From: a virus
Length of the DNA stretch: 64,000 nt
Strand: one strand, 5' to 3'
IMG/VR virus record: IMGVR_UViG_3300009182_000050
Span: 8,172 to 72,171 of that record
In this document: piece after piece, positions 42,731 to 62,342 of the stretch
Layout of the letters: each line of letters starts with the position of its first letter
Numbering within the stretch: the stretch's first letter is position 1
Position numbers and translations under genes: made by a program
The notes under the pieces: generated by a model
The model's input: only the letters and a program-made list of their open reading frames with translations
The model's database searches: none
Told to the model about the DNA's origin: nothing

Positions 42731-42754
42731 AACTACAGAAGGAAAAAAACTACA

Positions 42755-43623: not shown

Positions 43624-43824
43624 GTGAACTGGAATCAGTTTCTAAATGCAGTACGCGAGAGTTACAACTTCTGGGAAGATGAAGAAACTCTCACCAAGTT
43701 ACAAGATGCTTTCTACAACACAGAGAAAGATGTTGAGAACGAAGGCAACGAAGAACTTGACCAAGATGGTTGGTGGGAGATTGCAATCATCAACATCGAG
43801 CAACTCGGATTTGAGGTGAAGTAG
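43624..43824 (+). CDS. Short acidic hypothetical protein
   Basis: TTGACA promoter at 43555 and AAGGGAGA RBS. Confidence 0.65.
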   Translation: MNWNQFLNAVRESYNFWEDEETLTKLQDAFYNTEKDVENEGNEELDQDGWWEIAIINIEQLGFEVK

Positions 43825-43826
43825 AG

Positions 43827-44354
43827 ATGCCAAACTGGGTCTACAACTCGTTACTCATAGAAGGTGACGAAGACACGATTGACAAACTTCGTGCGACTCT
43901 CAAACAGCCTCACGACTTAGTAGATGGTGGTACTCCATACAAAGTGGACCAACCAATCTCATTTCATAACATCGTGCCGCTACCTTCAGAAGAACTAACC
44001 ACGATTGACCAGCACACAGCGTGGGGAACAAAATGGGACGCTTGTTATCCAGAAGAAAGTGATGCTGATGATGTCACACAACTCGTCTACACTTTCCAGA
44101 CTGCGTGGTCTGTTCCTACTCCGGTGATGTACGCACTCGCAACTCAATGGCCGACTCTGGACATCTTTCTTGACTTTGAAGAAGAGACAGGTTGGTTCGG
44201 AGAACTTCAATTCAAAGGTGGAGTTATGGTCAAGGAAAGCTTCATCGAACCTGTCTGCCATCAAGACTATGTTGATGGTGACAGAGTGTGTCAATGCGAG
44301 AATGACGAAGCACGATACGAAGACTGTCCAAACTACGAAGACCCTGAAGACTAA
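43827..44354 (+). CDS. DUF1281/YubB ferredoxin-like domain protein
   Basis: MPNWVYN, WGTKWDA, FQTAWSVP. Confidence 0.8.
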   Translation: MPNWVYNSLLIEGDEDTIDKLRATLKQPHDLVDGGTPYKVDQPISFHNIVPLPSEELTTIDQHTAWGTKWDACYPEESDADDVTQLVYTFQTAWSVPTPVMYALATQWPTLDIFLDFEEETGWFGELQFKGGVMVKESFIEPVCHQDYVDGDRVCQCENDEARYEDCPNYEDPED

Positions 44355-44358
44355 GGAC

Positions 44359-44428
44359 GACACGCGGTTTTCTAGATGGATTTGACATTGGAATAATAAG
44401 TCGCTAATGTCTGTTATGTAAGACAAAA
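44359..44428 (+). promoter_or_regulatory. Repeated early-type promoter cassette (near-copies at 50046-50110 and 50570-50640)
   Basis: GACACGC...ATTTGACA..GGAA.AATAAGTC..TAATGT...TTATGTAAGA with 17-nt spacing in all three. Confidence 0.75.
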
Positions 44429-44547
44429 TAACTGAATAAAGATTCTCTAGCAGATACGATTTGAAAATGTCATAGAGTGATGCTAGAGTGTGAATACTTC
44501 ATTAGAAGGTCTACTGAAGTAAGACACCTACAAAGGGGTGATGCGGT

Positions 44548-44889
44548 GTGAGTACCGCAACTGTAAGCAAGACCAAGACCACGACAGCAGTCGTCTTGGA
44601 GTCCAATACCATTGCACTTGATGGTACGAATCTCGCTGAGCTTATCGCTACGCTCAACGACACCAAAGATGCACTCAAGGTGCTAGAAGCACAAGAGAAG
44701 GCAACTCGCTCTGCAATTCTAGATTTGATGCAGGGTGCTGAAGAAGCCACCATTGGTGGAGTCGTTCAGGTCAAGGCAGTAGAGCAGACTCGCTCTGGCA
44801 TTGACAGCAAGATGCTCAAGGAAGTTTTCCCTGAAGCAGCCTCTGCTTGTGCGACCAGCACGACCTACACGACTCTGCGAGTCAAGTAA
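44548..44889 (+). CDS. Hypothetical protein resembling YqaJ C-terminal region
   Basis: Coiled coil then R.GIDSKMLKEVFPE; AAAGGGGTG RBS. Confidence 0.6.
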   Translation: MSTATVSKTKTTTAVVLESNTIALDGTNLAELIATLNDTKDALKVLEAQEKATRSAILDLMQGAEEATIGGVVQVKAVEQTRSGIDSKMLKEVFPEAASACATSTTYTTLRVK

Positions 44890-45019
44890 GTTCTCGTCAA
44901 GTCGGGGGGTGCGACACACCATCTCACTCCCCGATTTGACACCATTCTAGAAGTAATGTACCTTTAGAGATGTAAGACAGTAAGACACCAAAACGACACC
45001 TACACAAGGGAGAAATAAA

Positions 45020-45481
45020 GTGAGCACAGCATCACTCGTAGCACCGGCTACAAAAGAAGTTCAGGGTTGCGCGTTCTACGCGGAATTCACGAACGCTGCT
45101 GGTGACATCTATCAGATGTTCATCACGCCAGATGGTATCAACGAAGAGGGAGACTTCGTAGTCTCTCATGTATTCAAGCGTCGCTTGACTGCCGAAGCTC
45201 AGAAGAAGCAGTGGAGAACTACGGTTCTTTCAGCGATGCTGGTGGACGAAAATGGAATGAGCACAGAAGAACATCGCTTGACTCGTCTCAACAACATCAA
45301 AGACACATTGAATCGTCTCAACTTGCGTTTCACGCTCGTGGGTGAACCATTCTTTGTTGAAGTATCAAAAACAGACTTGAGTGAAATCGCTCAAGGTAAG
45401 ACACCAATCAAAGTAATCTATCGAATTGGACAGACTCGCAAAGGCTTAGGCTTTGACGAGATGTTCGCAGAAGCCAAGTAA
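45020..45481 (+). CDS. Hypothetical protein upstream of AAA ATPase
   Basis: TTGACA promoter at 44936, AAGGGAGA RBS. Confidence 0.7.
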   Translation: MSTASLVAPATKEVQGCAFYAEFTNAAGDIYQMFITPDGINEEGDFVVSHVFKRRLTAEAQKKQWRTTVLSAMLVDENGMSTEEHRLTRLNNIKDTLNRLNLRFTLVGEPFFVEVSKTDLSEIAQGKTPIKVIYRIGQTRKGLGFDEMFAEAK

Positions 45482-45495
45482 GGGAGAAAATCATA

Positions 45496-46542
45496 ATGGC
45501 TACTATCAAAGACACATACGCAATCATAGGCACGACTTTCGCATCTCGTCTTGACGAGTTTATGGCTCAATCAACTGTCGTTGATGCTGCACTTCGCATC
45601 AACTCAATGGTGACTCCACAGGGTCGCTACACGAAGCGAGCACCACGCACCACGAAGCCAAAGAGCACGACACCAGCAGTTGATGTTGATGTAGTTTCTG
45701 CGACTTCTGTAATCGCAAGTGAAGATAACATCTTTACTCGTCCTAATGGCTCTGCCTATCACGCACGCAAGTGGGGTGAACATCAAGATGTCGCAACTCT
45801 TCGCAAAGCTCGTGAAGCAACTGCGATGGTGATGTCAGGTGTTGTAGGTTCGCCTATGTTCGCACTTCTCTATGGTGCGCCGGGAACTGGCAAGACTGCT
45901 CTCGTTGAGGGTGCGTTTGGTGAAGTCAATCTTGTAATGGGAACTGGCGACACAGAAGTCTCTGACTTCATTGGTGGTTATGTTCAGACTCCATCAGGTG
46001 GCTTTGAGTGGATTGATGGTCCACTACTAAAGGCCGCAGAAAATGGTGAAGTTATCTTCATTGACGAGATTGGTCTCATTGACCCAAAGGTCTTGTCTGT
46101 TGTTTATGGAGCGATGGACGGTCGCAAGGAAATCGTAGTAACTGCGAATCCGGAGCGCGGAGCAGTCGCTATCAAAGAAGGTTTCTATGTTGTAGCAGCG
46201 ACTAACCCTAACGCTCCCGGCGTTCGACTTTCGGAAGCATTACTATCTCGCTTTACTATTCAAGCAGAGATGGCAACTGACTGGTCACTTGCTCGCACTC
46301 TACATGTTCCAACTGCGATTGTGACTTGCGCTCAAAACTTGAGCAAGAAGCAAAGTTCAGGTGAAGTTAGTTGGTCTCCACAGATGCGTGAGTTGCTCGC
46401 GTTCCGCGACATCGCAGGTGTCTTTGGTAACACATTCGCTGTATCAAACCTACTCGCCTCTGCACCAGAGATGGACCGACCTGTTGTGTCTGATGTCCTG
46501 TCTCGCGTGTTCGGTAGCGAGTGCAAGCCAGCGAGAATCTAA
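45496..46542 (+). CDS. MoxR/CbbQ-NirQ-NorQ (CobS-like) AAA+ ATPase
   Basis: YGAPGTGKT, WIDGPL, IFIDEI, AATNP, LSEALLSRF. Confidence 0.88.
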   Translation: MATIKDTYAIIGTTFASRLDEFMAQSTVVDAALRINSMVTPQGRYTKRAPRTTKPKSTTPAVDVDVVSATSVIASEDNIFTRPNGSAYHARKWGEHQDVATLRKAREATAMVMSGVVGSPMFALLYGAPGTGKTALVEGAFGEVNLVMGTGDTEVSDFIGGYVQTPSGGFEWIDGPLLKAAENGEVIFIDEIGLIDPKVLSVVYGAMDGRKEIVVTANPERGAVAIKEGFYVVAATNPNAPGVRLSEALLSRFTIQAEMATDWSLARTLHVPTAIVTCAQNLSKKQSSGEVSWSPQMRELLAFRDIAGVFGNTFAVSNLLASAPEMDRPVVSDVLSRVFGSECKPARI

Positions 46543-46683
46543 CTCCCTTTAGGTTCTCGCTAGGGTGGGGTTGAGTCGCACTTGGTGTCGCGACTCCCCC
46601 ACCCACCACTCAACTTGACACCATCATAGAACTACTGTAACTTTGGTCTTAGACACACAGACCCTTTTAGGGAAGGACAAGAA

Positions 46684-48462
46684 ATGGCACATCTAGACAC
46701 AGCAACAACAGAGCAAGGAACTCGTCACAATGAGTGGCTCACAGTTGGAGCACAGATTGGACAGCTCGTCAATGAGGCAGCAGGTCGCTACGACCTTGTA
46801 GGTCTTGCAGGACCTGTCGCCGGTAGTGGAGCACCAGCGTGTTTCAAGCCAGCGATTGCGGAAGTTGAAGTGAACACCACAGTCGCGTTCGGCGCAGGTA
46901 CAACACCAGAGATGATTGGTGACATCAACCTACGCGAAACTCAATACGAGTTTCCAAAAGCAACTGGAGCAATTCTTCACGAAGCTTTTCACGCAAGATT
47001 CTCTGCTTGGGAACTTGTAGATGCTCAAGCAGTTCTCAAAGCAGACGAGTACGAAGCACTCGTGCTACTTGAAGAGACTCGCATTGAGAAGCAGGGTCTT
47101 GACCTTGACTACAAGAATCGCGTGTTCTTGCGTGCATCAGCACTTGAGATTGCACTAGGTGACATTGAGGCCGCCAAAGAAGCAAGTAGTGTTTCACAAC
47201 TTGCACAGTTGGTTGGTCTGATTCACGGACGAGTGCTCGCCGGTATTCTTGAATTTGACGAAGTTGAAGAAGTCATAACATCTGTGAACTCCGCACTTGG
47301 TGAAGACATCGTTCGCCAACTCTCAACTATCTTGCGTAAGTTTCAATCACACTACAACAATTCAGATTTGACTGATGTCTACCCACTAGCAATCGAATGG
47401 GCACGAATCGTTCGCGAAGCAAAAGAAGAGCGTGGCGAAACTGATGGTGGTTCAGGTTCAGGTGCAGGTGCTGGAGAGATTGCAGAGATTCTTGAGAAGT
47501 TAGCAGAAGCAGCTGATGGAGTTTCTATCAAGAACTATGGCGAACTTTGTGACCAGCAAGAAAGCGAAGAGTGGGAGCAAGAAGTCAAAGAGCGTGCATC
47601 AGCATCTAAAGAACAGCACGAGCACGCAAGCGAAGCAGCAGAAGTATTTGGTAAAGGTACAGGACCTGCACCAGAGTCTTCAACAACAAGTCACCTGATT
47701 GAAACTCGCAAGCCTACAAGTAGCGAGCGTTCGGCAGCAGTTGTGGTTGCTCGTATGCTTGAGAAAGCAAAGTATCGTGAGCGCGATGCGATTGAGATTA
47801 CCAGCGTACTTCCTCCCGGTCGTCTTCGCACAAAGGCTCTCGTCCAGCAAGCAGCACTTCGCGACAAGGGCATACACAAACCTGTTGAAGCTTTCCGCAA
47901 GACTGTACGCAAGCACACAGACGACCCAACTCTTTCTGTTGGTGTCTTGGTAGACATCTCTGGCTCAATGAACTCTGCGATGAACCCAATGGCAGTTACA
48001 GCGTGGGTAATGAGCGAAGCAGTAAAGCGTGTTCAAGGTCGCGCATCTATGGTCTACTTTGGTCAAGATGTATTTCCAACTCTCAAAGCCGGACAAAGCC
48101 TTGATGATGTGAATGTGTATTCCGCGACAGATGGCACAGAGAAGTTTGACAAAGCGTTCAAGGCTCTTGATGGCTCTCTCAACCTGCTACACGGAAATGG
48201 AGCACGATTGCTAGTTGTCGTCTCTGATGGCTGCTTTACAGGTAAAGAAGTCAAAGCGACACGCAAGTGGATTGCTAGATGTGAGCAAGCCGGAGTTGCG
48301 GTATTGTGGATACCGTTCGATGGTGGCTATCACGCACGGAAACTCTTGAGCGACTCAAAGGTGAAACCTTTAGTCGGAGTGAGTGACCCTGTTGAGGCCG
48401 CCACAGAAATCGGGCAAGCGTGCGCTAAGGCTCTTACTCAAGCAGGTGCTCGCAACTCATAA
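46684..48462 (+). CDS. vWA-domain protein with N-terminal HExxH metallopeptidase-like region (CobT-like)
   Basis: ILHEAFHA, LEETRIE, GRL, VLVDISGSM MIDAS, VVVSDG. Confidence 0.88.
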   Translation: MAHLDTATTEQGTRHNEWLTVGAQIGQLVNEAAGRYDLVGLAGPVAGSGAPACFKPAIAEVEVNTTVAFGAGTTPEMIGDINLRETQYEFPKATGAILHEAFHARFSAWELVDAQAVLKADEYEALVLLEETRIEKQGLDLDYKNRVFLRASALEIALGDIEAAKEASSVSQLAQLVGLIHGRVLAGILEFDEVEEVITSVNSALGEDIVRQLSTILRKFQSHYNNSDLTDVYPLAIEWARIVREAKEERGETDGGSGSGAGAGEIAEILEKLAEAADGVSIKNYGELCDQQESEEWEQEVKERASASKEQHEHASEAAEVFGKGTGPAPESSTTSHLIETRKPTSSERSAAVVVARMLEKAKYRERDAIEITSVLPPGRLRTKALVQQAALRDKGIHKPVEAFRKTVRKHTDDPTLSVGVLVDISGSMNSAMNPMAVTAWVMSEAVKRVQGRASMVYFGQDVFPTLKAGQSLDDVNVYSATDGTEKFDKAFKALDGSLNLLHGNGARLLVVVSDGCFTGKEVKATRKWIARCEQAGVAVLWIPFDGGYHARKLLSDSKVKPLVGVSDPVEAATEIGQACAKALTQAGARNS

Positions 48463-48534
48463 CTGAATAACACAGACCCTTGTCGTCGGGTATCGTCCTT
48501 CCAGCGTGTGTCAGCCTTACGACAAGTTTTGGAA

Positions 48535-48567
48535 AAGCCTCTGCCAATCGGTGGGGGCTTTTTCTTT
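48535..48567 (+). terminator. Intrinsic terminator after vWA gene
   Basis: aagcctctgcc-aatc-ggtggggctt followed by T-tract. Confidence 0.7.
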
Positions 48568-48644
48568 GGTCGGCGTGTTGTGATTTGACAAGATGTCAGG
48601 GGGAGCGTGTATGATAGGTACATAACACCTACAAGGGAGAAATT

Positions 48645-48944
48645 ATGAAAAGACTTACAAAAGAATACGCAATCGTATTTGACGGCGACCGCTCAAACAT
48701 TGTTCTATCGGACGGCGTGGAAGCGTATGTGACGGCGTACTTCTCGGAGCTGATTGACGATAGTCGCGCACGGTTGGTATCTTTTGACCGGAGCGAGATG
48801 ACGGCGGTCTACTCATACGAACCAGCAGACTGCTTGGCGTGCTGTGAGACCGATGAAGACAACGGCGAGGACATCTGTACGAAGCACCAAGAGACGGTAG
48901 AACTTGAGTACCGGTCCGTTGATGTATGGACGGCGGTCTCATAA
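48645..48944 (+). CDS. Hypothetical protein
   Basis: Promoter at 48585, AAGGGAGA RBS; CLAC motif. Confidence 0.65.
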   Translation: MKRLTKEYAIVFDGDRSNIVLSDGVEAYVTAYFSELIDDSRARLVSFDRSEMTAVYSYEPADCLACCETDEDNGEDICTKHQETVELEYRSVDVWTAVS

Positions 48945-49671
48945 CGGGACGGCTCTCGACTGGCGGTAAGAAGAGCAGGAAAAAAACTTGACGGCCAGCT
49001 TCTGAAGCAGTGGGGAAGTAAAACATAGGGCAACTGGTCCTACCGAATACGACCGGAAAATTGATTAGACGGCGAGAACCCAGACGAACGGTGTCTGGGT
49101 TTCTTTGTGTCCGGACCCAGATGACGGCGTGCTGTGTAGGAAAAAAACTTTGCGGCGTGCTTGTATGTAGCACTGAAGATGACGGAGTGCTAACGGGTGG
49201 GAAAAGATAAGTTCTAGATGCTGGGACTGAAGACCGGATTGCCGGGTAGTTACCGGGTAACTAGCTGCTCTAGCTGGTGGGGAAAAAATAATAAGCGGCT
49301 GAAGACTGGGTCGTCAGCTCCCAGGCGCAGCCGAAGAAAAGATAAGTTCCAGATGCTGATGACGCGCAGCTGGAAGATGGCCAAAAATTTTTTTCCCGTA
49401 GCTCGCAGCCGAAGCTTCGCCGCTTAGGAAAAGATAATTTCCCCGGTTCCCGGTTCCCAGGCAGCTCCGGATTTTCCAGCTGGTCAGGAAAAAAATTATG
49501 CGCCGCACAATCCAGATGCCAGCTGAGCTGACCAGGCCGATTTTTAATTTTATTTTGCGTTATCAAATTGTTATCAAAATAATCTCATTTGGATTTGCTT
49601 TTATCATAGAGGTACGCTATGTTTAGTTTTGTAAGTAAAACACTTACGACACCTAACAAGGGAGAAATGAA

Positions 49672-50025
49672 ATGGGTCAATACCATTCACTTGTCAATGT
49701 AGACAAGAAAGAAATTGTCAATCCACACCTACTAGGTATGGGCGCAAAGCAATACGAACACACAGGGTTCATTGGTTCACTATCTGATGTTCTCTACACG
49801 CTCGTCACAACATCACCTGCTCGTGGTGGTGGCGACTACCCATTTACAGAAATTGCTGGTCGCTGGGTAGGCGACAGAGTTCTTGTAGTTGGCGACTACA
49901 CAGAGGCAACAGATTTTCCAGAGTTCCCCAATCTGGCTGCTGAAACTCATAGTAGCGAAAGCCCCTTCACAGACATCTCCGAGATGTGTAATAAGGCGAT
50001 GGAAGCAGTTCGGGCAAAATACTAA
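49672..50025 (+). CDS. Conserved hypothetical phage protein
   Basis: MGQYH..VN.DKKE...GAKQYEH...GRWVGDRVLVVGDY; AAGGGAGA RBS. Confidence 0.75.
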   Translation: MGQYHSLVNVDKKEIVNPHLLGMGAKQYEHTGFIGSLSDVLYTLVTTSPARGGGDYPFTEIAGRWVGDRVLVVGDYTEATDFPEFPNLAAETHSSESPFTDISEMCNKAMEAVRAKY

Positions 50026-50139
50026 TCAGGTCGGGGAAGCCTTGCGACACGCAGGGTTTCCCCCCGATTTGACAATGGAATAATAAGTCACTAATGTTTG
50101 TTATGTAAGATGAAGACACCAACAACAAGGGAGAAAAAC

Positions 50140-50553
50140 ATGTCAAAGACATTTGAGCAAGTTTGGGAAGATGTAAGAGCAGAGCTTGACGAAGCAAAGG
50201 GAATTGCTTTTGATGGTTGCCACAAGATTTACATTTTGATGGACCACGCACAGGTTCACGAGATGGCCGGCTATGGCTACGGAATTGACGACACACACCT
50301 AATCACAGAACAAAGTATGACCCCTGCGGAAATGCTGGTCACAATCAAGAAGTGGTACGAAGATTCTTGTGGTCTTGAGTTTGTCCAGTCAGTAGCAACT
50401 GTTGAGGGCGACCCTAACAAGGGGTTTGACAACATAATCCCACAGGGATACAGAGAAGAGTTCTGCCAACTATGTGGCGAGTTCGGTGCTAACTACGATG
50501 GAACTTGTGACGAGTGCGCCGAAGAACACGACCAAGACGAAGACGACGAATAA
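50140..50553 (+). CDS. Hypothetical protein
   Basis: AKGIAFDGCHKIY...WYEDSCGLEF; promoter cassette and AAGGGAGA RBS. Confidence 0.7.
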   Translation: MSKTFEQVWEDVRAELDEAKGIAFDGCHKIYILMDHAQVHEMAGYGYGIDDTHLITEQSMTPAEMLVTIKKWYEDSCGLEFVQSVATVEGDPNKGFDNIIPQGYREEFCQLCGEFGANYDGTCDECAEEHDQDEDDE

Positions 50554-50662
50554 ATTGTTCGGGGGTCGGCGACACGCTGACCCCCACTCAATTTGACAAG
50601 GAAACAATAAGTCAGTAATGTTTCTTATGTAAGACAAAATGACACAAACAAGGGAGAACAAA

Positions 50663-52082
50663 ATGTCAGACACAATCGTAAACAGCGACACACGAGCTAC
50701 TGCTCGCTACACGCTGGTACAAGCAATCCTAGAAGCCGACAATCGGGAAATAATTCTAGGTGCGCTAACTCAACTTGGCTACGAGTACGCAGTCACAGTT
50801 CAGGTTCGAGCAGAACAAAACGACAAAGAAAGCGCGGTGCGCTGGGCGCACGCTGCCAACGAAATTGGCACAATCTTGGCTTGCGCTGCCTACAACCTAG
50901 AAGACGAAGGGAACTAAAGAAATGACAAATGACAATTTTGCGGAAGAAGACCTACGCGCTCTACCAGATACCGTGCCAGATTATGTGGCACAACTGTTTG
51001 ACCTGTCCGAGCAGATGCTACGCGCTGAGATGACAGGTTGGGCGGTAGAGGTGCGAGTAATCGCAAACTGCCTTGCTGAAGGCTTAGGGCTTTTTGAGTA
51101 CGCAACTGACAATAATGCGGTGCTTGACTCCGTGTATGTCAATGGTGACTTGATTGACTATGACAAAAACGGTAATCCGTTGGAAGCAGACTAAGGGGAT
51201 AATGATGGAAAAAAATCTTCCAGAGCGCATAAATGTGATGAAAGTTATTTCGTATGATGTTCAGAACATTATGGAAAGTATTGTTGCTATGAATAGCGAC
51301 AGAGATTTTGACAGCATAACTTTAGAAGAAGTTATGGAACAGGTTGAGGCGTGGGTTCAAGAAGATTTCCCTGCCGACAGAATAAAGGATTTGATTATCC
51401 AAGACCAAGACGGAGAGGACATCTAATGCCATACACAATCACAGCAGTAAGCGATGAAGGGCGAGTAGCTTTGGGAGGCCCGAAGAAGGGCGAACCGGTT
51501 GAGCATCGCTGGGAAAAAAACTTTGATACCTTAGCCGAAGCGATTGAGGAATACGGCAAGTTCGTAGACCACGGTTTCGCTGCTTGGGAACGAGTCATAA
51601 GCATCATTGACACGCACGGCGAGGTTCTTGCCAGCAAGACGCTCGTAACACCGACAGATTGATGCGGTATGGCTACGCTACTGATTTCGTGGAACAAACA
51701 TAATGAGCCGGTGACGGAGGCTACTGATGCTGCTTTCTATCGCGTCTACGGACACGACTTGGTAGGCACGGTCTTCTTGGACGGTGTGGAGTACGCGCAC
51801 ATTTATTGTGACGGCGAGATGCGGTTGTATCCAGCAGAAGACAATCCAGAACAGCAAGTGCTACGCGATTGTCTTGACCTAGCTGATGTTGGGATTTTGA
51901 CTGACAAGCAACTCTTTGATGCGGTGGAAAAAAATTTATGGACCTGGGACATGAACCCCTGGTTTGATTTCTATTTAGCTGACGGAACGCATCTGGACAT
52001 TGTGTGCGACACCATTGACGAGGCGGTTTCGGTCGCAGAGTTTATGGCAAATCAAGACGGCTCGGAAGAGGAAGAAATTTGA
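50663..52082 (+). CDS. Operon of five short hypothetical proteins (ending 50917, 51194, 51426, 51662, 52082)
   Basis: Closely spaced co-oriented acidic ORFs downstream of promoter at 50593. Confidence 0.6.
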
Positions 52083-52153
52083 TAACGAAATTGTTATCAA
52101 AATAATCTAGTTTCGGGTTGCGTCTGTCATAGATGTATGCTAGATTATTTCTT

Positions 52154-52256
52154 GTAAGGTGGTGAGAGTCACTCTCTAAGCTAGGCGGAGCAAGTGCCGA
52201 ACAGATACCTGCTAAGACAGAGGTCAGACTTCCGAAGTCCACCGCGGCCACCTTAC
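52154..52256 (+). ncRNA. Candidate structured 5' leader RNA
   Basis: 10-bp closing stem gtaaggtggt/gccaccttac enclosing several hairpins, between promoter and RBS. Confidence 0.45.
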
Positions 52257-52279
52257 ACTTACAACAAAGGGAGAAATAC

Positions 52280-52756
52280 ATGCACATTGGACACATCTTG
52301 TTAGTTGAGGCAGAGAGCCTTGACGAAGCAAAAGCAGAGGTGAACCACCGGCTAGACGAAGGATACTTTCGCTGGTCAGACTGGTCAGAAATCGGCGGTC
52401 GCTACATTGACTTTTATGTAGACGGCGACTCGCTACGGTACTCAGATAATCCTGAAAAGGCAGAGCAAGCGATTGCGACAGCCGAAGGTTTCCGTGAGGA
52501 GTGCTTAGAGCGTTACATTGACAGATGCGTAAAGGCTGGCATCACCATTGAGGGGCTTGATGTACCGAAGGATACAAAACAATCGTTTGATGTGTACCCG
52601 CTTTACAAGGCGGCACAGATTGCGACAGGGCTGAACTGCGAAGAAACTTATGTCTACGACATAACTTACTCAAGTCAAGAACTTGACGACTTCCGCAAGC
52701 GAGTTGCGGATAATCCAGAGAACCAATACCTAATCGTGGTGGACTTTCACCACTAA
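52280..52756 (+). CDS. Conserved hypothetical phage protein
   Basis: WSDWSEIGGRY, C-terminal YLIVVDFHH; AAAGGGAGA RBS. Confidence 0.75.
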   Translation: MHIGHILLVEAESLDEAKAEVNHRLDEGYFRWSDWSEIGGRYIDFYVDGDSLRYSDNPEKAEQAIATAEGFREECLERYIDRCVKAGITIEGLDVPKDTKQSFDVYPLYKAAQIATGLNCEETYVYDITYSSQELDDFRKRVADNPENQYLIVVDFHH

Positions 52757-53081
52757 AACTCCCAGCGAATTGGGGTCGGGCATCAGCTCGGCCCCTTTTT
52801 GTTTGCGCCGGTCAGCTGGCTGCTGGTATGATGATGCTAGGAAAAAAATTATGGAGGTGTATCTCGTGCCGAAGAAGAAGAAGCCGCTTGACAAACTTGT
52901 CCGGTCGCGGGGAAACTATGTTCTCAACCAAAAATCATTTGTGTTTCTGGACCGGAGGACACGGAGAAATCGTGATAAAAGTTCCCAGCAGCGACACGCA
53001 ATAAAAGAAAGTTCTGAATAATTAGGTATTTGTCATAGACCTATGCTAAAGTATCTACATAAGGGAAAAAGGAGAAACCCC

Positions 53082-54371
53082 ATGAAGTGGAAAACAGTAC
53101 GAAGCGTAGTAGACAACAAGGTACGCGGTTATGACAGCGTGGACTTAGTTGATGGTCGCTCAATCTCAATCAGTCGGTGGAACACCAAGTTGTACCCAGA
53201 TTGCTGGTCGGTTCATCACCCACGCATTGAGGCGCACAAATTGGACAACAATCGGGCTTTCTTTAGCACTCTTGCTAAGGCAAAAGAGTTCGCAGAAACT
53301 CTCGTCCGGTCCTAGAAAAATAAATACCAAATAGACTTGACACGGCTCTATGATACGATTAGTATCGTAGATGTAAGACAAACACACAAACAAAAGGGAG
53401 AAAGAAATGACAAACACAATCACAATCAAGTTTGCGGCAGACCGGGTTCTGACTCAACAAGAGATTGACAATCTTGCTAACGCTCTTTACGCACAGGTAC
53501 AAGAGCCAGCAGATGAGTTCGGTGATGATGAAACTTACACCACCAGCGACATCGAGATTGACTTAGAGGTGGAGGCATAATGAGTCGTGACTTGATAGTA
53601 AAAGGAAATGGTGCTTGTTGCGCCAACTGCGGCAAGTCTAAAGTTAGTCCGTTTGTTCTACTTGGCTACAAGGTTTGGGCTTGCGACTCAACTTGCGGTA
53701 GAGATGCGGTACACAAAACAATCTACGGAGCGAGAGTGTGATGAACAAAATTGAGATACCGGTCGGCACGACTTGCGAAAGTTGTGACGAGGTAGATGCC
53801 ACAGTTGTAGATGACCATAGCGGTTGGCTATTAGCATCTTTTTACTGCGCGGATTGCGTGGAAAAAAGGCAAGATGCTTATGACCCAACACCTAGTTCGT
53901 ATAGCATCATTGTTGAGAACGAATACGGAAGGGTGTTCTAATGAGGTGTCCTAAATGCGGTACTGAGCCGCACACGCCGGTACAAATACAACGCAAGGGC
54001 ATGTGCCGCTGGTGCGAAGAAGAGGTAGCAGCGAAATGAGTTGGGAAAAAAATTTTAGTGATGTGCAGCCAGAAGATGTTGGTTCGGTCCTGGTTGCGGC
54101 TTCGGAAACAAATAAATACCAGCTCGGCGTTGATGCGGTAGAACTGGCGATAAAACACGGCTATGACATTGTTCTTGATGTGTGGAATCAAGACAAGCCA
54201 ACCTTTCTTGCCGGACACGCCACACCTGAGATGCTTGATGACCTAAGCGTTGTTGTTGATTTCGCAATCCAATACCTTGAGGAAAAGTTGCCAGATGGTT
54301 TTTACCTTGATGCGGATACAAAAACAGGAATAGTTTTGCGACACGCCGACCACGATTTGACATTGGAATAG
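53082..54371 (+). CDS. Series of short hypothetical proteins (53082-53315, 53407-53580, 53740-53941, ~54036-54371 and smaller)
   Basis: RBS-bearing ORFs after promoter-like sequences at ~53030 and 53337. Confidence 0.55.
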
Positions 54372-54642
54372 AAATAAGCAATAATGGTGTTATCACAAAG
54401 GGAGAGGTGAGAAAATGAACACAGTTTCATGCACTAAGTGCGCTAAAGAGATTGACCGTTTAGAGGTCTTTCCGAAGGGCGTATGCCTAGACTGTCACGC
54501 AGAAACCTTCGTAATGCCAACAGCAGACGAATTGGTTGCTATGTGGGGTGGCAAGGCGTAATTAAGATGTTGGGGGTGGGGCGAAAGTCTCACCCCCTAC
54601 AAAAAAACCAAAATGACAAAATGACAAAAGGAGAAATGCCAG

Positions 54643-55053
54643 ATGGCAAATTACTACGGCGTTACACGCAGCAATTATTTTGCGGTGAAGAATGAAGAAG
54701 AGTTCCGTGCGGAGATTGCGAATCTTCCGGTGGAGCTGATTGAGGCAAAAGAAGAAGGAAAAAAAGTTTTCGGATTCATTGACTCAGACTCAGATGGCGG
54801 CGGAGACATCTTCTCTCGCTGGAATGAAGAGACAGAAACACACGAAGAGGTTGATTGGGAGGCGTTCTTCCAAAAGCATCTCGCAGATGATTGGGTTGCC
54901 ATCATTGTTTCTTCTGGCGCAGAAAAGCACCGATACATAAATGGTTTTGCGGTTGCTTACAACAACAAGGGCGAGAGTCGTTCGGTTGGTGTTGAGGACA
55001 TCTACAGACTTTCTGAAGATTTAGGTTCTCGCCGGACTCACGCAAGTTATTAA
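54643..55053 (+). CDS. Conserved hypothetical phage protein
   Basis: MANYYG.TRSNYFAVK...GAEKHRYING; AAGGAGA RBS. Confidence 0.75.
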   Translation: MANYYGVTRSNYFAVKNEEEFRAEIANLPVELIEAKEEGKKVFGFIDSDSDGGGDIFSRWNEETETHEEVDWEAFFQKHLADDWVAIIVSSGAEKHRYINGFAVAYNNKGESRSVGVEDIYRLSEDLGSRRTHASY

Positions 55054-55140
55054 AAAATAATAATTCAGGAGGGGTGGACTTGACAGTCTGCCCCTTCTGG
55101 GTTTATCATAGAGGTATCAGCTCAAACAAAGGAGAAAACA

Positions 55141-55485
55141 ATGAGCAAGCAAGGGACAGCACTAATTTTAACCTCGATGATGCGGTCAGAAGAAAAGACA
55201 TTCACCATTGGTGATTCATACCAGATGATACGAGATGCCGTTGATGGGTACATTGAGTGCGTACATCTACCATCTATTGGCGTTGACATGTGGTGTAACG
55301 AAGAAGGAAAACTTATCGGTCTTCCACAAAATGATTTCGCATCTTTATTCTTCCAAAAAGAATACGGCGTATTTGATTCCGTGCGTGGAGATGTTATCTT
55401 CACTGGTGGAGTAGACAAAGAAGGCGAAACTCTTGGGCTTACGGACACACAACTTGATGAACTAAAGAAACGGTTGGGGGTGTAA
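55141..55485 (+). CDS. DUF3846 domain protein
   Basis: VDGYIECV, MWCNEEGKL.GLP.N, GDVIFTGG.D.EGET.GL. Confidence 0.85.
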   Translation: MSKQGTALILTSMMRSEEKTFTIGDSYQMIRDAVDGYIECVHLPSIGVDMWCNEEGKLIGLPQNDFASLFFQKEYGVFDSVRGDVIFTGGVDKEGETLGLTDTQLDELKKRLGV

Positions 55486-57316
55486 TGATGAGGGACATTG
55501 AGCTCCGCCTGAGCGCGGAAAAAAAGTCATCTAGATGGGAACTCCAGGTGTATGACCCCAATGTCGCGCATCAGATTGGGCAGCAGGAAAAAAAGTTTGA
55601 TAGTGTCGGCCACGCGGAAGTTTGGCTGGAAGTTTTCTCCAGCAGCAGCATTAAAGTTATGGACCTTGGAGCATCTACCGTTCTTCGTGCGCTTGCTCCG
55701 GCTGAAGACTTCAACCTTGAGAAAATACTTGCTGGATAAACTTGACACAAGCATCATAGAGGCGTATTATTTACTTATCGCAACAAGGCGATACTGAAGG
55801 GAGACTCACATGAGTGAGATTCAGACTGCGGAGAAGGTTGTTATCTCAAACAACTGCTCCTGCGAAAATGAAGACGGAAGTTACACAACTGAGTGTTTCG
55901 GCTGCTACGAAGATGCGGTGTACGAACTTGACCAACTAATGAAGAACTGGGTTGAGGCTCAAGGCAACGAACTCACCAACACAGTACGCATTGAGGGTTC
56001 GGCTATGGGTTGGACAAGAGCCGAAGGCTATGCCGTGGTTGAGTTTGACGAAGTGTTTAATGCGCTCAAACTTAATGGCGACTGGACGCTGACTCTCAAA
56101 CTAGAAGGCGCAACGCTGACTGCGGTGCGTACCTCACACGACGAGCCAACTGGCGCGTCATTCACTTTCGCGTTCATTCCGGACGACGAGCAAGATTAAC
56201 CCTTGCGCCCCCTGAAGAAAGCCCTCACCGAAAGGTGGGGGTTTTTCTTTGGCGTGTTCGGTTTGCTTTTTGTCGGTGGTTGGGTGTATGATGAGTTTAT
56301 GAAGTTAGGGAAACTTCATAGAAGGAGAAACAAAGTGAACTACACGATAAGACTCACGCAGACAACTGCTTGGGAAGTAGAAGTCGAGGCAGATGACGAA
56401 GCACAAGCAATGGAACTTACAAAGGACTGGGGACGAGACGAACTCAGCGATGAAGAGATTGTGAGTAATTGTTGGGATACGGAAGTCCGATGATAAAAAC
56501 AAAGCCAATTCAGATTCTTGGATTCACGGTTGAGTTAGAGATTACTCCACGAGAACTGCCGTTCATTGGTAGATTCTTCCGATAGATTCCAGAACAAGCC
56601 CCCTCTTCGGAGGGGGTTTTGTTTTGCCGGAGATGACGCGGCTCAGGAAAAGATAATTTGATGCAGCAGCAGCCAGAGCCCGGAAGGTTGGCCTGGGTGG
56701 GAAAAAAATTACTGCCAGATGCCGGGAAGGGGAAGCTGGTCTCGTCCGGAGAAAACGCATCTAGACACGCTGAAGAATAATGGATTTGACATAGGTATGA
56801 TAAACGCGTACTATGTACTTATCGCAGTAATGCGAAACTAACAAGGGAGAACAAAATGAAGATGGAAACAACAACTTGCTACAAGTGCGACACTCAGATT
56901 GAGGCACTAGAGGGACAGGTACACCCATTGTGTGCCGATTGTGAAAAGTCGTTTGACAACTGGTTTGAGAAGACTCTTGCCGAAATGGGAATGGGGAACA
57001 AGTGAACACACAAGAAATTACTTACAGCAAGGAAATAAAGAAACTACTGAGTGGTCTTCGCCACCCAGCAACTCAACAGACACTAAAGAGTCGTGTGACA
57101 TTACACCCTTTGGTATCTGACTGTATCTACATTGAGATTGCTGAGAACGCTGATGCTCAGATTACGGCTTATCACTTTGATGAGGAACAGGTTATTTACA
57201 CGATTGAACTTTATGTAGATAATGTTGATGGGGACACGAAAGAAGTTTTCTCGTGGACTACCACGGACTGGAAAGAAATGCGGTCTAAGGTCCTAGAACT
57301 CAAGGCAGGGTTGTGA
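55485..57316 (+). CDS. Short hypothetical proteins (55485-55739, 55810-56199, ~56335-56493, 57002-57316 and smaller)
   Basis: Each preceded by TTGACA-type promoter and/or purine-rich RBS; terminators at ~56215 and ~56595. Confidence 0.55.
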
Positions 57317-57513
57317 TGGCTAAGAAGCATTACATCTTCCCTTGCTGCTGGAAGTGCGGAAAGCAATTCCGGATTGAGGAAAAAGACTACACGAATCACG
57401 CTTGTTGCGGTGATTGCTAGAACGGAAGAAGTCTGAAGACTGAGCCGCGCCTCCTTGCGGCTTAGTCTCAGATGGGACTCATCACAGGAAAAAAATTTGT
57501 GATAGAGTTTCAA

Positions 57514-57633
57514 TGTCTGTCGAGCCGGGTTTTCTCCCTTCTCCCAGAGCTCCAGACAAACTGGATGAGGCCACCCCTTTCCTCATCCTCCGGATGCGTC
57601 ACCTTACTCCCTTTCGGTGGCGCATCCTTTTTT
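57514..57633 (+). ncRNA. Candidate sRNA with three hairpins bearing C/U-rich anti-RBS loops
   Basis: Extended -10 TGaTAGAGT at 57500-57508; stems tgtctg/cagaca, ggatgagg/cctcatcc, ggatgcgtcacc/ggtggcgcatcc; U-tract at 57628. Confidence 0.6.
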
Positions 57634-57726
57634 ATTAAATTGTTATCAAATGAACTTGACATACATCTATGATGAGCATAGTATGTAGTTATGAAGTTAA
57701 GGGAACTTCATAGAAGGAGAACTCAA

Positions 57727-57942
57727 ATGAGTCAGGACGCTTTTTACAACAAGTACTACAAGGCACTAGAAGGAGCAACGATTCTCAAATTCGTTGAGAT
57801 GCGTGGAGATGAGTTTGGTGGCAAATCATTCCCAGTATTCTCAGTTATGTTTTCTGATGGTTCAGTAAACGAAGTTGAGGTTTCTCAAGATGAGGAAGGT
57901 AATGGCGGAGGTTTCTTGTTCGGACTCCCAGTACCTGCCTAA
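57727..57942 (+). CDS. Hypothetical protein
   Basis: VSQDEEGNGGGFL motif; promoter at 57656 and GAAGGAGA RBS. Confidence 0.7.
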   Translation: MSQDAFYNKYYKALEGATILKFVEMRGDEFGGKSFPVFSVMFSDGSVNEVEVSQDEEGNGGGFLFGLPVPA

Positions 57943-58032
57943 CCCATAAGCCGAAAGCCCTCCACTACTCCTTAGGGTGGGGGGCTTTCTTATGCCCAAA
58001 TAGCCTTCGCTAGGGTGCGGTAATCTCAGGGT

Positions 58033-58308
58033 ATGAAAAGATTAGAAATCCTTCAGCACGAATACCACGAGAACAAAAGTGGTGAACCCTTCGTCGTTGC
58101 CATCGTAGAAGATGTAGAACACAACGACACAAAACTTATTATTATGTTTGAGGACGATGGTTATACTGCGGTTCTCTCTCTTGACCAAATCATAGATGAA
58201 GAAGACATCTCGGAGAAGACGAACAGTTGGAACGCTGGCAAGTATGAAGAACGACTCCGGAACTTTCTTTGGAGCGAAGAAGGCGACAATTACTCAATTG
58301 AGTATTAG
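58033..58308 (+). CDS. Hypothetical protein
   Basis: ORF upstream of protease; SGEPF, TAVLSLD, NSW motifs. Confidence 0.6.
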   Translation: MKRLEILQHEYHENKSGEPFVVAIVEDVEHNDTKLIIMFEDDGYTAVLSLDQIIDEEDISEKTNSWNAGKYEERLRNFLWSEEGDNYSIEY

Positions 58309-58317
58309 GAAGAACTA

Positions 58318-58878
58318 ATGACAACGATTGTTGGGATACAAGGAGATGGGTTTGCCGTTATTGGCTACGACTCTCGCGTATCCGGAGAAAACGGTCGTAT
58401 TTATGTTTTGCCAAAAGACACCGGCAAGGTTGTGCGGAACGGAAATTATCTTTTAGGAGCAGCTGGGGACTTACGAGCGATAAATCTTCTGGCCGACATT
58501 GAGCTGCCGGACCCAGAAGAACTCGTGGGAAAAAAATTAGATAAGTTCTTCTCCACCCAGGTCGTGCCGCGCATCCGGACGCACTTTGAGCGACATGGTT
58601 ACGGTCGTGATGGTAGCCAGAGTTCTGACATCTTGGTGTGTATCTCTGGAATTATCTATGAAATCGCAGAAAACTATGACTGGAACAGGGATGCGTTTGG
58701 CATCTACGGTGTAGGAAGTGGTTCTGATTACGCAGTTGGAGCATTACATACATTAGTTGATGGCGACATAACAGTTGATGCGGCTAAGCTTTGGATTAAA
58801 GCTGCGATGAAGATTGCGCTGCGGCTTGACTCCGGAAGCGGCAACCCGGTAAACATTGTCGTCCAGCAGAACAGCTAA
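58318..58878 (+). CDS. Proteasome beta/HslV-like Ntn-hydrolase
   Basis: N-terminal MTTIVG (Thr nucleophile), DSR, GAAG, GSGSDYA.GAL, D..SG. Confidence 0.82.
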   Translation: MTTIVGIQGDGFAVIGYDSRVSGENGRIYVLPKDTGKVVRNGNYLLGAAGDLRAINLLADIELPDPEELVGKKLDKFFSTQVVPRIRTHFERHGYGRDGSQSSDILVCISGIIYEIAENYDWNRDAFGIYGVGSGSDYAVGALHTLVDGDITVDAAKLWIKAAMKIALRLDSGSGNPVNIVVQQNS

Positions 58879-58944
58879 TAATTTTTTTCCTACTTCCGGG
58901 CGCGGCGACTTGACATCCCGGACAAAGCTGCTAAGCTTGTCTGC

Positions 58945-59697
58945 ATGGGAACATTTGTATCTTTATTTGCCGGAGTAGGTGGCTTTGACCTCGGTCTTGA
59001 GTCTGGAGGACACACTTGTGTCGGTCAGGTTGAGATTGACCCGAAGTGCCTTGCGGTATTGGAAAAGCATTGGCCAGATGTGTCAAAGCATAATGATGTA
59101 GTAACAGCAAAGGAATGGGCTAATGAGCAAAACATCATCGGAAAAGTTGACATTGTCTGCGGAGGATTTCCGTGCCAAGACGTTAGCGTTGCAGGAAAAA
59201 GGGCTGGACTGGCTGGCGCAAGGACTGGACTATTCTTTGATGCACTCTCTTTCGCAACGCACGTCAAAGCAAAAACTCTCATCTTGGAGAATGTCCCAGG
59301 ACTTTTATCAAGCAACAACGGACGCGATTTCGGAGTCGTCCTCACTAGTCTGGCCGACGCAGGGTATAGCGACATCCAATGGCGTGTTCTTGATTCGCAA
59401 TTCTTCGGAGTCCCCCAACGCCGTCGTCGAGTCTTCATTGTCGCAAGTACTCCAGACGGAAGTTTCCCCGAAGTACTCTTTGAGCGCGAAAGCCTCGGAG
59501 GGAATCATCCGGAGAGCGGAACGCAGGGGCAAGACTCTACCGGAAGCACTGAAGAACGCGCTGCAAGCAGTGGTGGACGCGGCGAAGACCAGCGAGTAGG
59601 AAACTTTGAACTCTGGACTTTTCCAGAAGAAGCAGTAACACCAGCGTTATCAGCTCGTCGTTCCGGTGACATGCTGAACTACCAGCAGCCTGAGTAG
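58945..59697 (+). CDS. C5 cytosine DNA methyltransferase catalytic chain (motifs I-VIII only)
   Basis: SLFAGVGG (I), GGFPCQD (IV), ENVPG (VI), QRRRRVF (VIII); motifs IX and X absent. Confidence 0.92.
   Translation: MGTFVSLFAGVGGFDLGLESGGHTCVGQVEIDPKCLAVLEKHWPDVSKHNDVVTAKEWANEQNIIGKVDIVCGGFPCQDVSVAGKRAGLAGARTGLFFDALSFATHVKAKTLILENVPGLLSSNNGRDFGVVLTSLADAGYSDIQWRVLDSQFFGVPQRRRRVFIVASTPDGSFPEVLFERESLGGNHPESGTQGQDSTGSTEERAASSGGRGEDQRVGNFELWTFPEEAVTPALSARRSGDMLNYQQPE
59123..59599 (+). CDS. Nested +1-frame protein resembling the M.EcoHK31I beta chain N-terminal region
   Basis: AAGGA RBS; ...SSESPNAVVESSLSQVLQTEVSPKYSLSAKASEGIIRRAERRGKTLP... Confidence 0.65.
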   Translation: MSKTSSEKLTLSAEDFRAKTLALQEKGLDWLAQGLDYSLMHSLSQRTSKQKLSSWRMSQDFYQATTDAISESSSLVWPTQGIATSNGVFLIRNSSESPNAVVESSLSQVLQTEVSPKYSLSAKASEGIIRRAERRGKTLPEALKNALQAVVDAAKTSE

Positions 59698-59703
59698 GAA
59701 AAA

Positions 59704-60528
59704 ATGTTAAGCTGGTTCGTGAAGACGATTCGGTCTGGTGCGCGAGCTGCTGATGGAAGCCTTCCAGCTGATGTTTGGACTGAAGGAGTTGTTCATCCAA
59801 CTCTGAACTTGTTTGATGTTGGAGATACAAGGGCGGTTACATTGGTAATTCACTGGAAGCCGATTGACGAAGGGGTCGTTGGACCTTTAACAACTGGGAT
59901 GGATTCACCACGCGGTTCTGAAACATCTGACTCAAAGCATCTTGTGATTGGAGAAGAAGTGCCGACATACCCTATTGACACTCGTAATGCTCTTCGTGAC
60001 CCAGATAAGAAAGATGCGATGAACAGGCAAGGTCTTGGTGTTGGAGAAGATGGTGACCCATCACCAACATTGACAAGTCTTTTCGTACCAGCAGTAATTT
60101 CTACGGAGGAAGCAGAAGTGAGTAGCGTATTTCCCATCCAGAACACAGTGATTGGTCGTAAGGACACAGCCGGACCTCAGGGTCGTGGGCACGGAGATGC
60201 GGATGGACCGATGTTCACTCTTGACACCGGGGGAGGTCACGCAGTGGCCGTAGCTGAAGAGGAAAAAAATTTGGAACCAGCGGCTTACGATGAGTTTAAT
60301 GATTCAATTTCCCCGGTACATCACACGCTGCGTGCCGGAACAAAGCAGTCAACTGGGGTTTTTGCCAGCGTAGTTCGCCGGCTCACCCCGGTAGAGTGCG
60401 AGCGGCTACAAGGATTTCCAGATGACTGGACAATGGCTGATGCCAAAACAGTTGATTCGCATCGTTACAAGCAGATGGGTAATGCGGTTACAGTAAATGT
60501 GATTGGGTGGATTGGCTCTCGCCTCTGA
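59704..60528 (+). CDS. C5 MTase C-terminal chain 1 (several TRD-like segments + motifs IX/X)
   Basis: HPTL, PSPTL, MFTL, HHTL segments; RRLTPVECERLQGFPDDWT; RYKQMGNAV. Confidence 0.88.
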   Translation: MLSWFVKTIRSGARAADGSLPADVWTEGVVHPTLNLFDVGDTRAVTLVIHWKPIDEGVVGPLTTGMDSPRGSETSDSKHLVIGEEVPTYPIDTRNALRDPDKKDAMNRQGLGVGEDGDPSPTLTSLFVPAVISTEEAEVSSVFPIQNTVIGRKDTAGPQGRGHGDADGPMFTLDTGGGHAVAVAEEEKNLEPAAYDEFNDSISPVHHTLRAGTKQSTGVFASVVRRLTPVECERLQGFPDDWTMADAKTVDSHRYKQMGNAVTVNVIGWIGSRL

Positions 60529-61829: not shown

Positions 61830-62120
61830 TTATTCGTCTTCGTCATCTTCTTCAGGAGCATCTGAACAAGTTACGCGAGTCCAATAAACGATTGTGTCGT
61901 AGCCCATTGAATCGGTTCGGCTATTGCTGAGTAGTTCCTTGCGGAGTTCTTCGTCCTCAACCGTCTCAGCGATTGCTGCGCCAAGTTCTAGCAGGTCACT
62001 AGCAACGATTCCTACGCAAACATTGCCGTACATTCCGCGACCTGAGTAATCAGCGCGAGCATCGCCATTAACTTCCTGAGCGATTTCTTCTAGCAGGTCT
62101 AGTGAGATTGTGTATGTCAT
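61830..62120 (-). CDS. Hypothetical phage protein
   Basis: YSGRGMYG..C.G and DSMG...IVYW motifs; AAGGGAGA RBS on minus strand. Confidence 0.75.
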   Translation of the reverse strand: MTYTISLDLLEEIAQEVNGDARADYSGRGMYGNVCVGIVASDLLELGAAIAETVEDEELRKELLSNSRTDSMGYDTIVYWTRVTCSDAPEEDDEDE

Positions 62121-62342
62121 CTCGGTTCTCCCTTATGAGTTTTATGAAGCCTCCCTGACTTCATACCTCTATCATACGCTTATTAGGGTAGGTGTCAAGT
62201 TGAAATGATGTGATTTAGATAACAATTTGATAACGCTAGAAAACCTTTATGACACGCCATAAAATCATTAACTTGACATTGTGCAGGAAGGTCTGTATCT
62301 TTAGATTATCACCAAACGGTGACCTTCCCCAAAGGAGACGAA

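Follow-up and report, generated by a model that had tools for sequence, protein, structure and literature searches.

A putative three-hairpin small-RNA gene in an uncultured phage, with loops complementary to early ribosome-binding leaders

The stretch analyzed here (the window, 64,000 nt) comprises bases 8172 to 72171 of a 72,171-bp viral contig, IMG/VR record IMGVR_UViG_3300009182_000050, with an estimated completeness of 54%. Positions 57514 to 57633 of the window appear to form a real, conserved and uncatalogued phage small-RNA (sRNA) gene, the product of which is predicted to fold into three hairpins with pyrimidine-rich loops. The loops of hairpins 1 and 3 (loops 1 and 3) show a specific fit to the AAGGGAG leaders found on the phage's early genes, and this fit is independent of general Shine-Dalgarno strength. 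We give about even probability to the proposal that positions 57515 to 57633 of the plus strand encode a trans-acting sRNA of ~119 nt, the loops of which would damp translation of the early class by pairing with its ribosome-binding sites (RBSs).

Structure and conservation of the RNA element

The predicted element consists of the following parts.

57514 to 57558, plus strand: hairpin 1, with loop 1 (UUUUCUCCCUUCU) at 57530 to 57542
57563 to 57588, plus strand: hairpin 2, with loop 2 (CCACCCCUUU) at 57571 to 57580
57592 to 57633, plus strand: hairpin 3 (57592 to 57627), with loop 3 (UUACUCCCUUUC) at 57604 to 57615, plus the uridine tract (U-tract) at 57628 to 57633

An initial annotation of this stretch had reported three hairpins and a terminal U-tract, and both were recovered, with TTTTTT as the last six bases. 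The minimum free energy of the element was −50.1 kcal/mol, compared with −27.9 ± 3.1 kcal/mol for 200 dinucleotide shuffles (z = −7.16), none of which folded as well (0/200). All loops were predicted to be almost wholly unpaired, with an opening cost of ~0.1 kcal/mol. Positions 57592 to 57633 have the form of an intrinsic (Rho-independent) terminator, a G+C-rich stem of 12 bp followed by U6; a terminator pattern scanner overlooked hairpin 3, as it accepts loops of 3 to 8 nt and loop 3 has 12. In the homologues described below, the tail 3′ of hairpin 3 holds at least five T per 10 bases in 13 of 15 rows (three in L146 and four in L160). The annotation had also seen no credible open reading frame (ORF). 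Stop-free frames of ~40 codons do cross the element because the stretch is C/T-rich, but none is conserved among the homologues, the lengths of which (126, 128, 129 and 137 nt) differ by non-multiples of three and therefore leave no reading frame conserved. These lengths, the lack of a conserved start codon and the compensatory changes in the stems ruled out a coding function.

No Rfam family was found at its gathering score anywhere in the window. A first covariance model, generated from the window and a contig of 98.6% identity, detected one diverged copy in one of five related viral records (G001; 81 bits; E value, 5e−21), and BLASTN and nhmmer searches with the element against the first 81 loci returned only the window itself and the near-identical contig L002. 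The exact three-loop pattern was present in 54 stretches of viral contigs, 53 of which were chance occurrences, and only the near-identical contig fitted the model. Scanning with a 17-mer from loop 1 identified 15 stretches, including three new full matches to the model (L148, L141 and L146) and the already known near-identical L124; the remaining 11 lay in unrelated contexts. All eight stretches from a metagenome pattern scan matched the model, as did all 12 from a hairpin-3 pattern. A second model aligned 18 matches from viral and metagenome contigs of lakes; 15 were distinct copies, and two were truncated where a contig ended. The element is single-copy in each genome. BLASTN of positions 56800 to 58400 against 50,697 phage records gave zero matches, and when one genome for each prokaryote species was scanned with the pattern, a single stretch turned up, without a covariance-model match; it is a chance occurrence that offers no clue to the host.

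Standard pairs filled 94.1% of alignment cells, compared with 38.6 to 48.4% when the partners were slid by one to three columns; the alignment was fitted to the covariance model, so these pair counts lean toward the structure. Changes on both sides were found in 21 of the 34 pairs (7/14, 7/8 and 7/12 in hairpins 1, 2 and 3, respectively), and none of 500 column shuffles reached the observed covariation values. Hairpin 3 was paired in 100% of cells. Hairpin 2 has no invariant stem column, so that only compensation explains its pairing; its stems share no letters between lineages, and the combination of MAFFT and RNAalifold misaligned it, for which reason the model-based alignment was used instead. 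G-U pairs recurred, with U-G in 12 of 15 rows at columns 104/125 and with G-C in six rows and G-U in six at columns 99/130. Since these would be A-C mismatches on the opposite strand, the plus strand is taken as the RNA strand; a minus-strand RNA was ruled out by these pairs and by the less exceptional fold of the reverse strand (z = −4.82).

With the L163 fragment dropped (14 rows), mean pairwise identity was 0.91 in loop 1, where 12 of 15 columns are invariant, and 0.89 in loop 3, compared with 0.55 to 0.81 in the stems and 0.27 to 0.54 in the linkers. Loop 2 retains an invariant core of five columns, and the loop core across homologues reads YCCCUU. The covariation, the loop identity, a conserved −10 element and the terminator-like hairpin argue, as the annotation had proposed, for a discrete structured RNA gene; its loops are under constraint.

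A synteny search via the proteasome-like gene of the window found no clear homologue of the element in 79 loci (40 to 46% protein identity), only weak matches with E values of 0.13 to 2.1. Five of these proved to be a different, two-hairpin element, located at positions 860 to 945 of L061 and also present in L037, L062, L072 and L077, which are distant phages (41% proteasome-protein identity). The L061-type element lies behind a TTGACA promoter, has the loops UUCCCUUUC and UUUCUUCCCUCCUGU (UCCCUCC-type) and lacks a U-tract. Its appearance suggests an analogous design placed as a leader, and the pyrimidine-loop hairpin design seems to be widespread in phages.

Complementarity to early-gene leaders

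Thirteen plus-strand copies of AAGGGAGA are present, all between 42307 and 56843 and each a few bases before a start codon, preceded by a GATTTGACA-type promoter and a common leader sequence. Candidate targets are as follows.

42307 to 56850, plus strand: early-gene block with candidate targets, comprising 13 AAGGGAGA leaders at 42307, 43611, 45006, 45480, 48633, 49658, 50127, 50650, 52267, 53394, 54398, 55797 and 56843
44532 to 44540, plus strand: AAAGGGGTG, the sole 9-mer complement of loop 2, ahead of the gene at 44548 (−15.3 kcal/mol; alone not above chance)
62127 to 62134, minus strand: AAGGGAGA leader of the minus-strand gene 61830 to 62120, a further candidate target (loop 1, −13.5 kcal/mol)

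The early cassettes (window 42240 to 56850) also share a spacer of 17 nt after the GATTTGACA −35 sequence and the leader ..tgtaagaca..acacctacac ahead of AAGGGAGA.

The complements named for loop 1 in the initial annotation were located as described, with an 11-mer complement at 45480 and 50127 in addition to the 13 copies of AAGGGAGA before start codons, and AAAGGGAG, named for loop 3, starts at 52266 and 53393. The RBS of the 44548 gene had been assigned to loop 2; AAAGGGGTG is indeed present there once, at 44532, but this is not above chance, ~0.5 such 9-mer matches being expected in 128 kb.

When the best 25 sites for loop 1 were collected from 128 kb (both strands), 15 lay just before ORF starts, nearly all of them in the early block, compared with 9/25 and 7/25 for two control oligonucleotides and eight each for loops 2 and 3. 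Mean pairing energies of loop 1 were −11.4 kcal/mol in early-block initiation regions (n = 27) and −8.3 kcal/mol in those of left-arm genes (n = 26; Mann-Whitney P = 5e−4). Loop 3 also distinguished early from left-arm genes (P = 0.006), and a 16S-tail control showed no difference (P = 0.54). RNAcofold was uninformative with the leaders, as closed-loop pairing is a pseudoknot, and was replaced by duplex plus opening energies; with accessibility thus added for both target and loop, the means were −8.1 and −3.8 kcal/mol (P = 2e−4), and 12 of the 15 best predicted sites fell in the early block. Letter-shuffled loops, which preserve pyrimidine content, reached the observed mean over 14 early leaders in 3/500 cases for loop 1 and 18/500 for loop 3. 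It is from the enrichment over left-arm genes and over shuffled loops that the specificity of loops 1 and 3 for the early leaders follows. The proposal that the loops complement the phage's own early RBS leaders thus stands for these two loops against both other genes and shuffles, but not for loop 2.

Loop and RBS variants were also compared across lineages, with the RNA element masked before RBSs were counted. RBS-positioned AAGGGAG occurred at 0.62 per kb in the right arm of the window, 0 in the left arm and 0.23 to 0.54 in the three other RNA-carrying lineage groups, and at 0.02 per kb in 79 more distant phage loci without a model match. In the group with UCCCCUUU as the sequence of loops 2 and 3, AAAGGGG RBSs number 16 in 47.9 kb and are distributed over five of six loci, versus three in 85.9 kb for the other lineage groups together (binomial P = 2e−5, uncorrected for ancestry). 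The loop-RBS covariation suggested as a check in the annotation was therefore positive between lineages, CCCCUUU loops occurring with AAAGGGG RBSs, and this lineage-level match lends suggestive support to pairing.

Promoter, neighboring genes and host

The features around the predicted RNA start are listed below.

57500 to 57508, plus strand: extended −10 element TGaTAGAGT, with the predicted start at G 57515
57487 to 57497, plus strand: copy of GGAAAAAAATT abutting the promoter, one copy of the phage's dispersed 11-mer (A7 motif)
57474 to 57511, plus strand: inverted repeat H0, GGGACTCATCACA / TGTGATaGAGTTTC, around the A7 motif and overlapping the −10 element (fold of 57421 to 57640)
57313 to 57420, plus strand: conserved upstream neighbor, a small gene encoding 35 amino acids, Cys-rich (CxxC...CxxC)
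57431 to 57472, plus strand: extra hairpin with loop GCCUCCUU in the 3′ untranslated region (UTR) of the small gene, 5′ of the predicted RNA start (fold of 57421 to 57640; no U-tract after it)
57656 to 57684, plus strand: next early promoter, TTGACA-17-TAGTAT, serving the gene 57727 to 57942 (pattern scan)

The extended −10 element that had been noted directly upstream of the RNA was confirmed, and TGnTAnnnT is present in all ten aligned lineages, with TTnTGnTAnnnT invariant in 10/10 sequences. Within the hexamer the three inner positions vary, and a stretch of six variable bases separates it from a G at the foot of hairpin 1, which places the predicted RNA start at ~57515. The regular expression TG.TA...T matched in 17/17 loci, and no −35 hexamer was found at the RNA promoter. 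Extended −10 promoters of the TANNNT type are usual in actinobacteria.

The motif that the annotation had placed at the promoter, GGAAAAAAATT, lies just 5′ of the −10 element. It is found in 12 copies on the plus strand and four on the minus strand, all within 40268 to 60261 (the high-GC right arm), both inside and between ORFs, and is a DNA-level signal. Lineages B and C have a dispersed motif of their own (CTGAAATTTTTT, their most frequent 10-mers) at the matching spot by the promoter, and the L164-type lineage has no dispersed-motif copy at the RNA promoter. The words ACGGCCAG and CTGGCCGT are repeated beside several A7 motif copies (window 40395 to 41561). Shorter inverted repeats composed of other letters were read by eye at the position equivalent to H0 in L159, L138, L153/L156, L146 and the L164 type. 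The arms vary by lineage yet stay complementary (for example, CACAAA/TTTGTG versus CATAAA/TTTATG), and H0 might serve as an operator, as a processing hairpin or site, or as a spacer.

The small gene upstream was taken from the ORF list, and its CW(K/R)C...CxxC frame is present in 17/17 loci with upstream sequence. Against PHROGs, its product gave a weak match alone, to a family of unknown function. Its stop codon lies ~14 to 80 nt before the −10 element of the RNA, and in most relatives, where the RNA element follows this stop codon by 14 to 46 nt, there is no terminator between them. L156 carries a small gene with an in-frame stop (CWRCGK-stop), ~14 to 120 nt upstream of an intact RNA copy, and in L148 the last Cys of the small protein is changed to Tyr and the RNA is intact. 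As the small gene is broken in L156 and the RNA is not, the RNA is independent of the Cys-rich protein, and a partnership of the two was rejected as unsupported. The extra hairpin at 57431 to 57472 is confined to the window and the near-identical contig L002; its loop GCCUCCUU holds an anti-Shine-Dalgarno-like core. On L137, a homologue (72%) of the gene 57002 to 57316 is followed by a plain terminator and the RNA is located elsewhere on the contig, and in G001 the RNA element is ~3.9 kb from the homologue of that gene. A TTGACA promoter lies directly 3′ of hairpin 3 in relatives too.

The left 39 kb of the window codes for a family A DNA polymerase, an SNF2 helicase, a primase-D5 helicase, a large terminase and a class II ribonucleotide reductase. 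The right arm contains many small plus-strand genes together with a MoxR-type ATPase, a VWA protein, the proteasome-like protein and a split C5 methyltransferase. G+C content is 0.36 to 0.43 in the left 39 kb versus 0.46 to 0.51 in the right arm, with the jump at ~39500 to 40500. RBS usage shifts with this jump, RBS-positioned AAGGGAG going from 0 in the left arm to 0.62 per kb in the right arm. Two WhiB-family genes exceed the Pfam cutoff, and among 14 control genomes the WhiB model matched Corynebacterium alone, which points to an actinobacterium as the host. We infer that the source is an uncultured freshwater (lake) actinophage.

Proposed function, alternatives and known systems

If the element acts in trans, it would be a free, stable RNA with its 5′ end within a stem and its 3′ end at the terminator hairpin. 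Messages with (A)AGGGAGAAA or, in sister lineages, AAAGGGG would be the targets of the exposed loops, which would pair with both their Shine-Dalgarno sequence and the A-rich spacer, the target tag being a private RBS variant of the phage's own early cassettes. Such pairing would exclude the 30S subunit, and one multivalent RNA could in this way damp or shut off the whole early class; early translation of incoming related phages may be silenced as well. The invariant UUUU on the 5′ side of loop 1 would fit pairing that reaches into the GAAAA spacer. We infer discrete transcription, pairing, repression, timing and the role against related phages from sequence. More tentatively, the phage may possess an RNA-only class switch, in which early cassettes are tagged by a private Shine-Dalgarno-plus-spacer sequence (AAGGGAGAAA, or AAAGGGG in sisters) and one stable three-headed RNA silences the class after take-over, and likewise the early genes of incoming related phages; loops would co-evolve with leaders by lineage, and the promoter would be gated by a reader of the dispersed A/T-tract motif. 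This fuller scheme is possible rather than probable.

Several points weigh against early-class repression by pairing. Any pyrimidine loop pairs somewhat with purine-rich Shine-Dalgarno sequences, and loop 2 fits the early leaders no better than its shuffles do (237/500) and does not separate early from left-arm genes (P = 0.11). The target test used a crude ORF caller of our own, from which 62 genes with a good Shine-Dalgarno sequence were kept. Lineage C has one CCCCUUU loop and no AAAGGGG RBS in 14.8 kb, and in lineages C and D, AAAGGGA[AT], the exact 8-mer complement of their UUCCCUUU loops (loops 2 and 3), is found at none of the RBSs in 62 kb; the UUCCCUUU loops nonetheless cover AAGGGA inside AAGGGAG leaders. 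The lineage groups compared are few and related, and with shared ancestry uncorrected their differences perhaps represent one or two evolutionary events. Five of the distant control loci carry a two-hairpin element of their own with similar loops and are thus not clean negatives. The RNA lies among the early genes and has a host-type promoter, so a delayed switch needs either accumulation of a stable RNA or a motif-gated promoter. In most lineages no terminator separates the small gene from the RNA, so the mRNA of the small gene must carry the same element as its 3′ UTR.

The same RNA gene might instead act mainly on host mRNAs, as a take-over tool that masks the G-rich RBSs of actinobacteria, its match to phage leaders being secondary. 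The conservation of the RNA and its constrained loops would suit this, as would its early-gene-like position and promoter and the want of a convincing phage partner for loop 2, and host sRNAs of such design regulate many cellular mRNAs, as reported for 6C (PMC6486639) and sX13 (PMC3771888). We consider it unlikely, since the fit of loops 1 and 3 is specific to the early-block leaders rather than a matter of general Shine-Dalgarno strength, the RNA-carrying clade is ~tenfold enriched in exactly complementary RBSs, and the element was found in no bacterial genome in the scan of one genome per prokaryote species. Another proposal dispenses with mRNA pairing, the three YCCCUU loops serving as a decoy that sequesters an RNA-binding protein or docks on the ribosome. 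In protein-titrating RNAs, too, a single short motif recurs from loop to loop while the stems are free, and the loop letters here are conserved beyond structural need. Set against this, a lineage match of loop and RBS variants is expected for pairing and not for protein binding, the RNA persists in L156 and L148 despite decay of the Cys-rich neighbor gene, and we know of no pyrimidine-loop-binding regulator in actinobacteria; a decoy is distinctly unlikely.

Two further explanations start from the read-through transcript. The element could do no more than end the small-gene operon 56856 to 57420 as a structured 3′ UTR with a terminator, stabilizing the mRNA and insulating it from the next promoter, the complementarity being incidental. 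In most relatives it does follow the stop codon of the upstream gene by 14 to 80 nt with no intervening terminator, its last hairpin ends the operon, and the homologous gene of L137 is followed by a plain terminator elsewhere. The loops were nevertheless more conserved than the stems, and a mere terminator would be expected to show the reverse; the invariant extended −10 element stands at a fixed distance, and the element moves relative to other genes (~3.9 kb from the 57002 to 57316 homologue in G001) and outlives the decay of the upstream gene, which makes this reading very unlikely. Least probable in our view is a cis-acting 3′ UTR, in which the loops would pair with the AAGGGAGA leader (56843) of their own read-through mRNA in a 3′-5′ UTR feedback. 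The leader of the first operon gene does match (−13.6 kcal/mol with loop 1; −12.8 kcal/mol in total), and the fourth hairpin of the window lineage (GCCUCCUU loop), being 5′ of the predicted start, is possible only in a long transcript. However, fourteen other leaders match equally or better, the extra hairpin is missing from all other lineages, and a free RNA is what the conserved promoter would lead one to expect.

Most of the known temporal control in phages relies on proteins, such as sigma factors, anti-sigma factors and RegA- or RegB-type factors. To our knowledge, the actinobacterial hosts of lake actinophages have no Hfq-type chaperones. In these abundant, uncultured lake actinophages, one small RNA seems to reach an entire regulon via a shared RBS tag. 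If true, repression of the early class by this RNA would be an RNA-based solution to early-gene shut-off and would supply a natural orthogonal Shine-Dalgarno tag with its own repressor, a useful compact part for translation control. To judge from the family and its looser phage relatives, anti-Shine-Dalgarno RNAs may be a device in common use among phages, undescribed in the literature searched, where no phage RNA of such design was found (subscription journals and supplements lay outside the coverage).

Among known systems, sX13 (RF02232) gave the best sub-threshold Rfam match over the full element (24.1 bits against a gathering score of 50; E value, 0.01; model positions 1 to 115), followed by Cuckoo/alpha-r14 (ar14, RF02344; 22.8 bits against 58.8; E value, 0.021), and 6C was not among the six Rfam matches at E values up to 10 (57380 to 57700). 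Both sX13 and ar14 are described as multi-hairpin RNAs with pyrimidine loops that act on RBSs (PMC3771888, PMC4615179). Specifically, sX13 of Xanthomonas has ~115 nt, three stable stems and C-rich apical loops and represses mRNAs with G-rich RBSs without Hfq (PMC3771888). The likeness is one of architecture only, three stable stems with three apical C-rich loops: sX13 is a chromosomal proteobacterial RNA with a CCCC loop motif and host-gene targets, whereas the present element is phage-borne and its loops read YCCCUU. Within the window, CCCC is confined to loop 2, and in lineage B it is found in two loops, where it accompanies AAAGGGG RBSs. Cuckoo/alpha-r14 of Alphaproteobacteria is described as two to four adjacent hairpins with a shared pyrimidine loop motif, CCUCCUCCC, and variable stems (PMC4615179). 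Adjacent hairpins, a shared loop motif and variable stems recur here (identity of 0.55 to 0.81 in stems and 0.89 to 0.91 in loops, with 21/34 pairs covarying), but the defining CCUCCUCCC is absent from UUUUCUCCCUUCU, CCACCCCUUU and UUACUCCCUUUC, and the Cuckoo RNAs belong to another phylum and are not phage-borne. The C-rich loops of 6C, from high-GC Gram-positive bacteria, are reported to bind many mRNAs directly and independently of chaperones (PMC6486639). It shares with the element the phylum inferred for the phage host and chaperone-free binding of mRNAs by C-rich loops; it differs in being a host gene, and the phage loops are C/U-rich and mirror the Shine-Dalgarno sequence plus spacer. 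With scores that fall short and other defining loop motifs, the element lies outside sX13, Cuckoo/ar14 and 6C, and it is also distinct from the c4 RNA of phages P1 and P7. Loop sequences of c4 are reported to pair around the RBS of a phage mRNA and block translation (PMC12197685). Both RNAs are thus phage-encoded with loops directed to the surroundings of a phage-mRNA RBS, but c4 serves a single antirepressor operon in a temperate immunity circuit, compared with ~15 matched leaders here, and no sequence relation between them was found. In logic, the proposed function resembles that of the T4 endoribonuclease RegB, which is reported to destroy early mRNAs at GGAG (PMC1702504). In both cases early mRNAs would be inactivated as a class through GGAG-type Shine-Dalgarno sequences; RegB and RegA are proteins, whereas the agent proposed here is an RNA and the tag a private Shine-Dalgarno variant.

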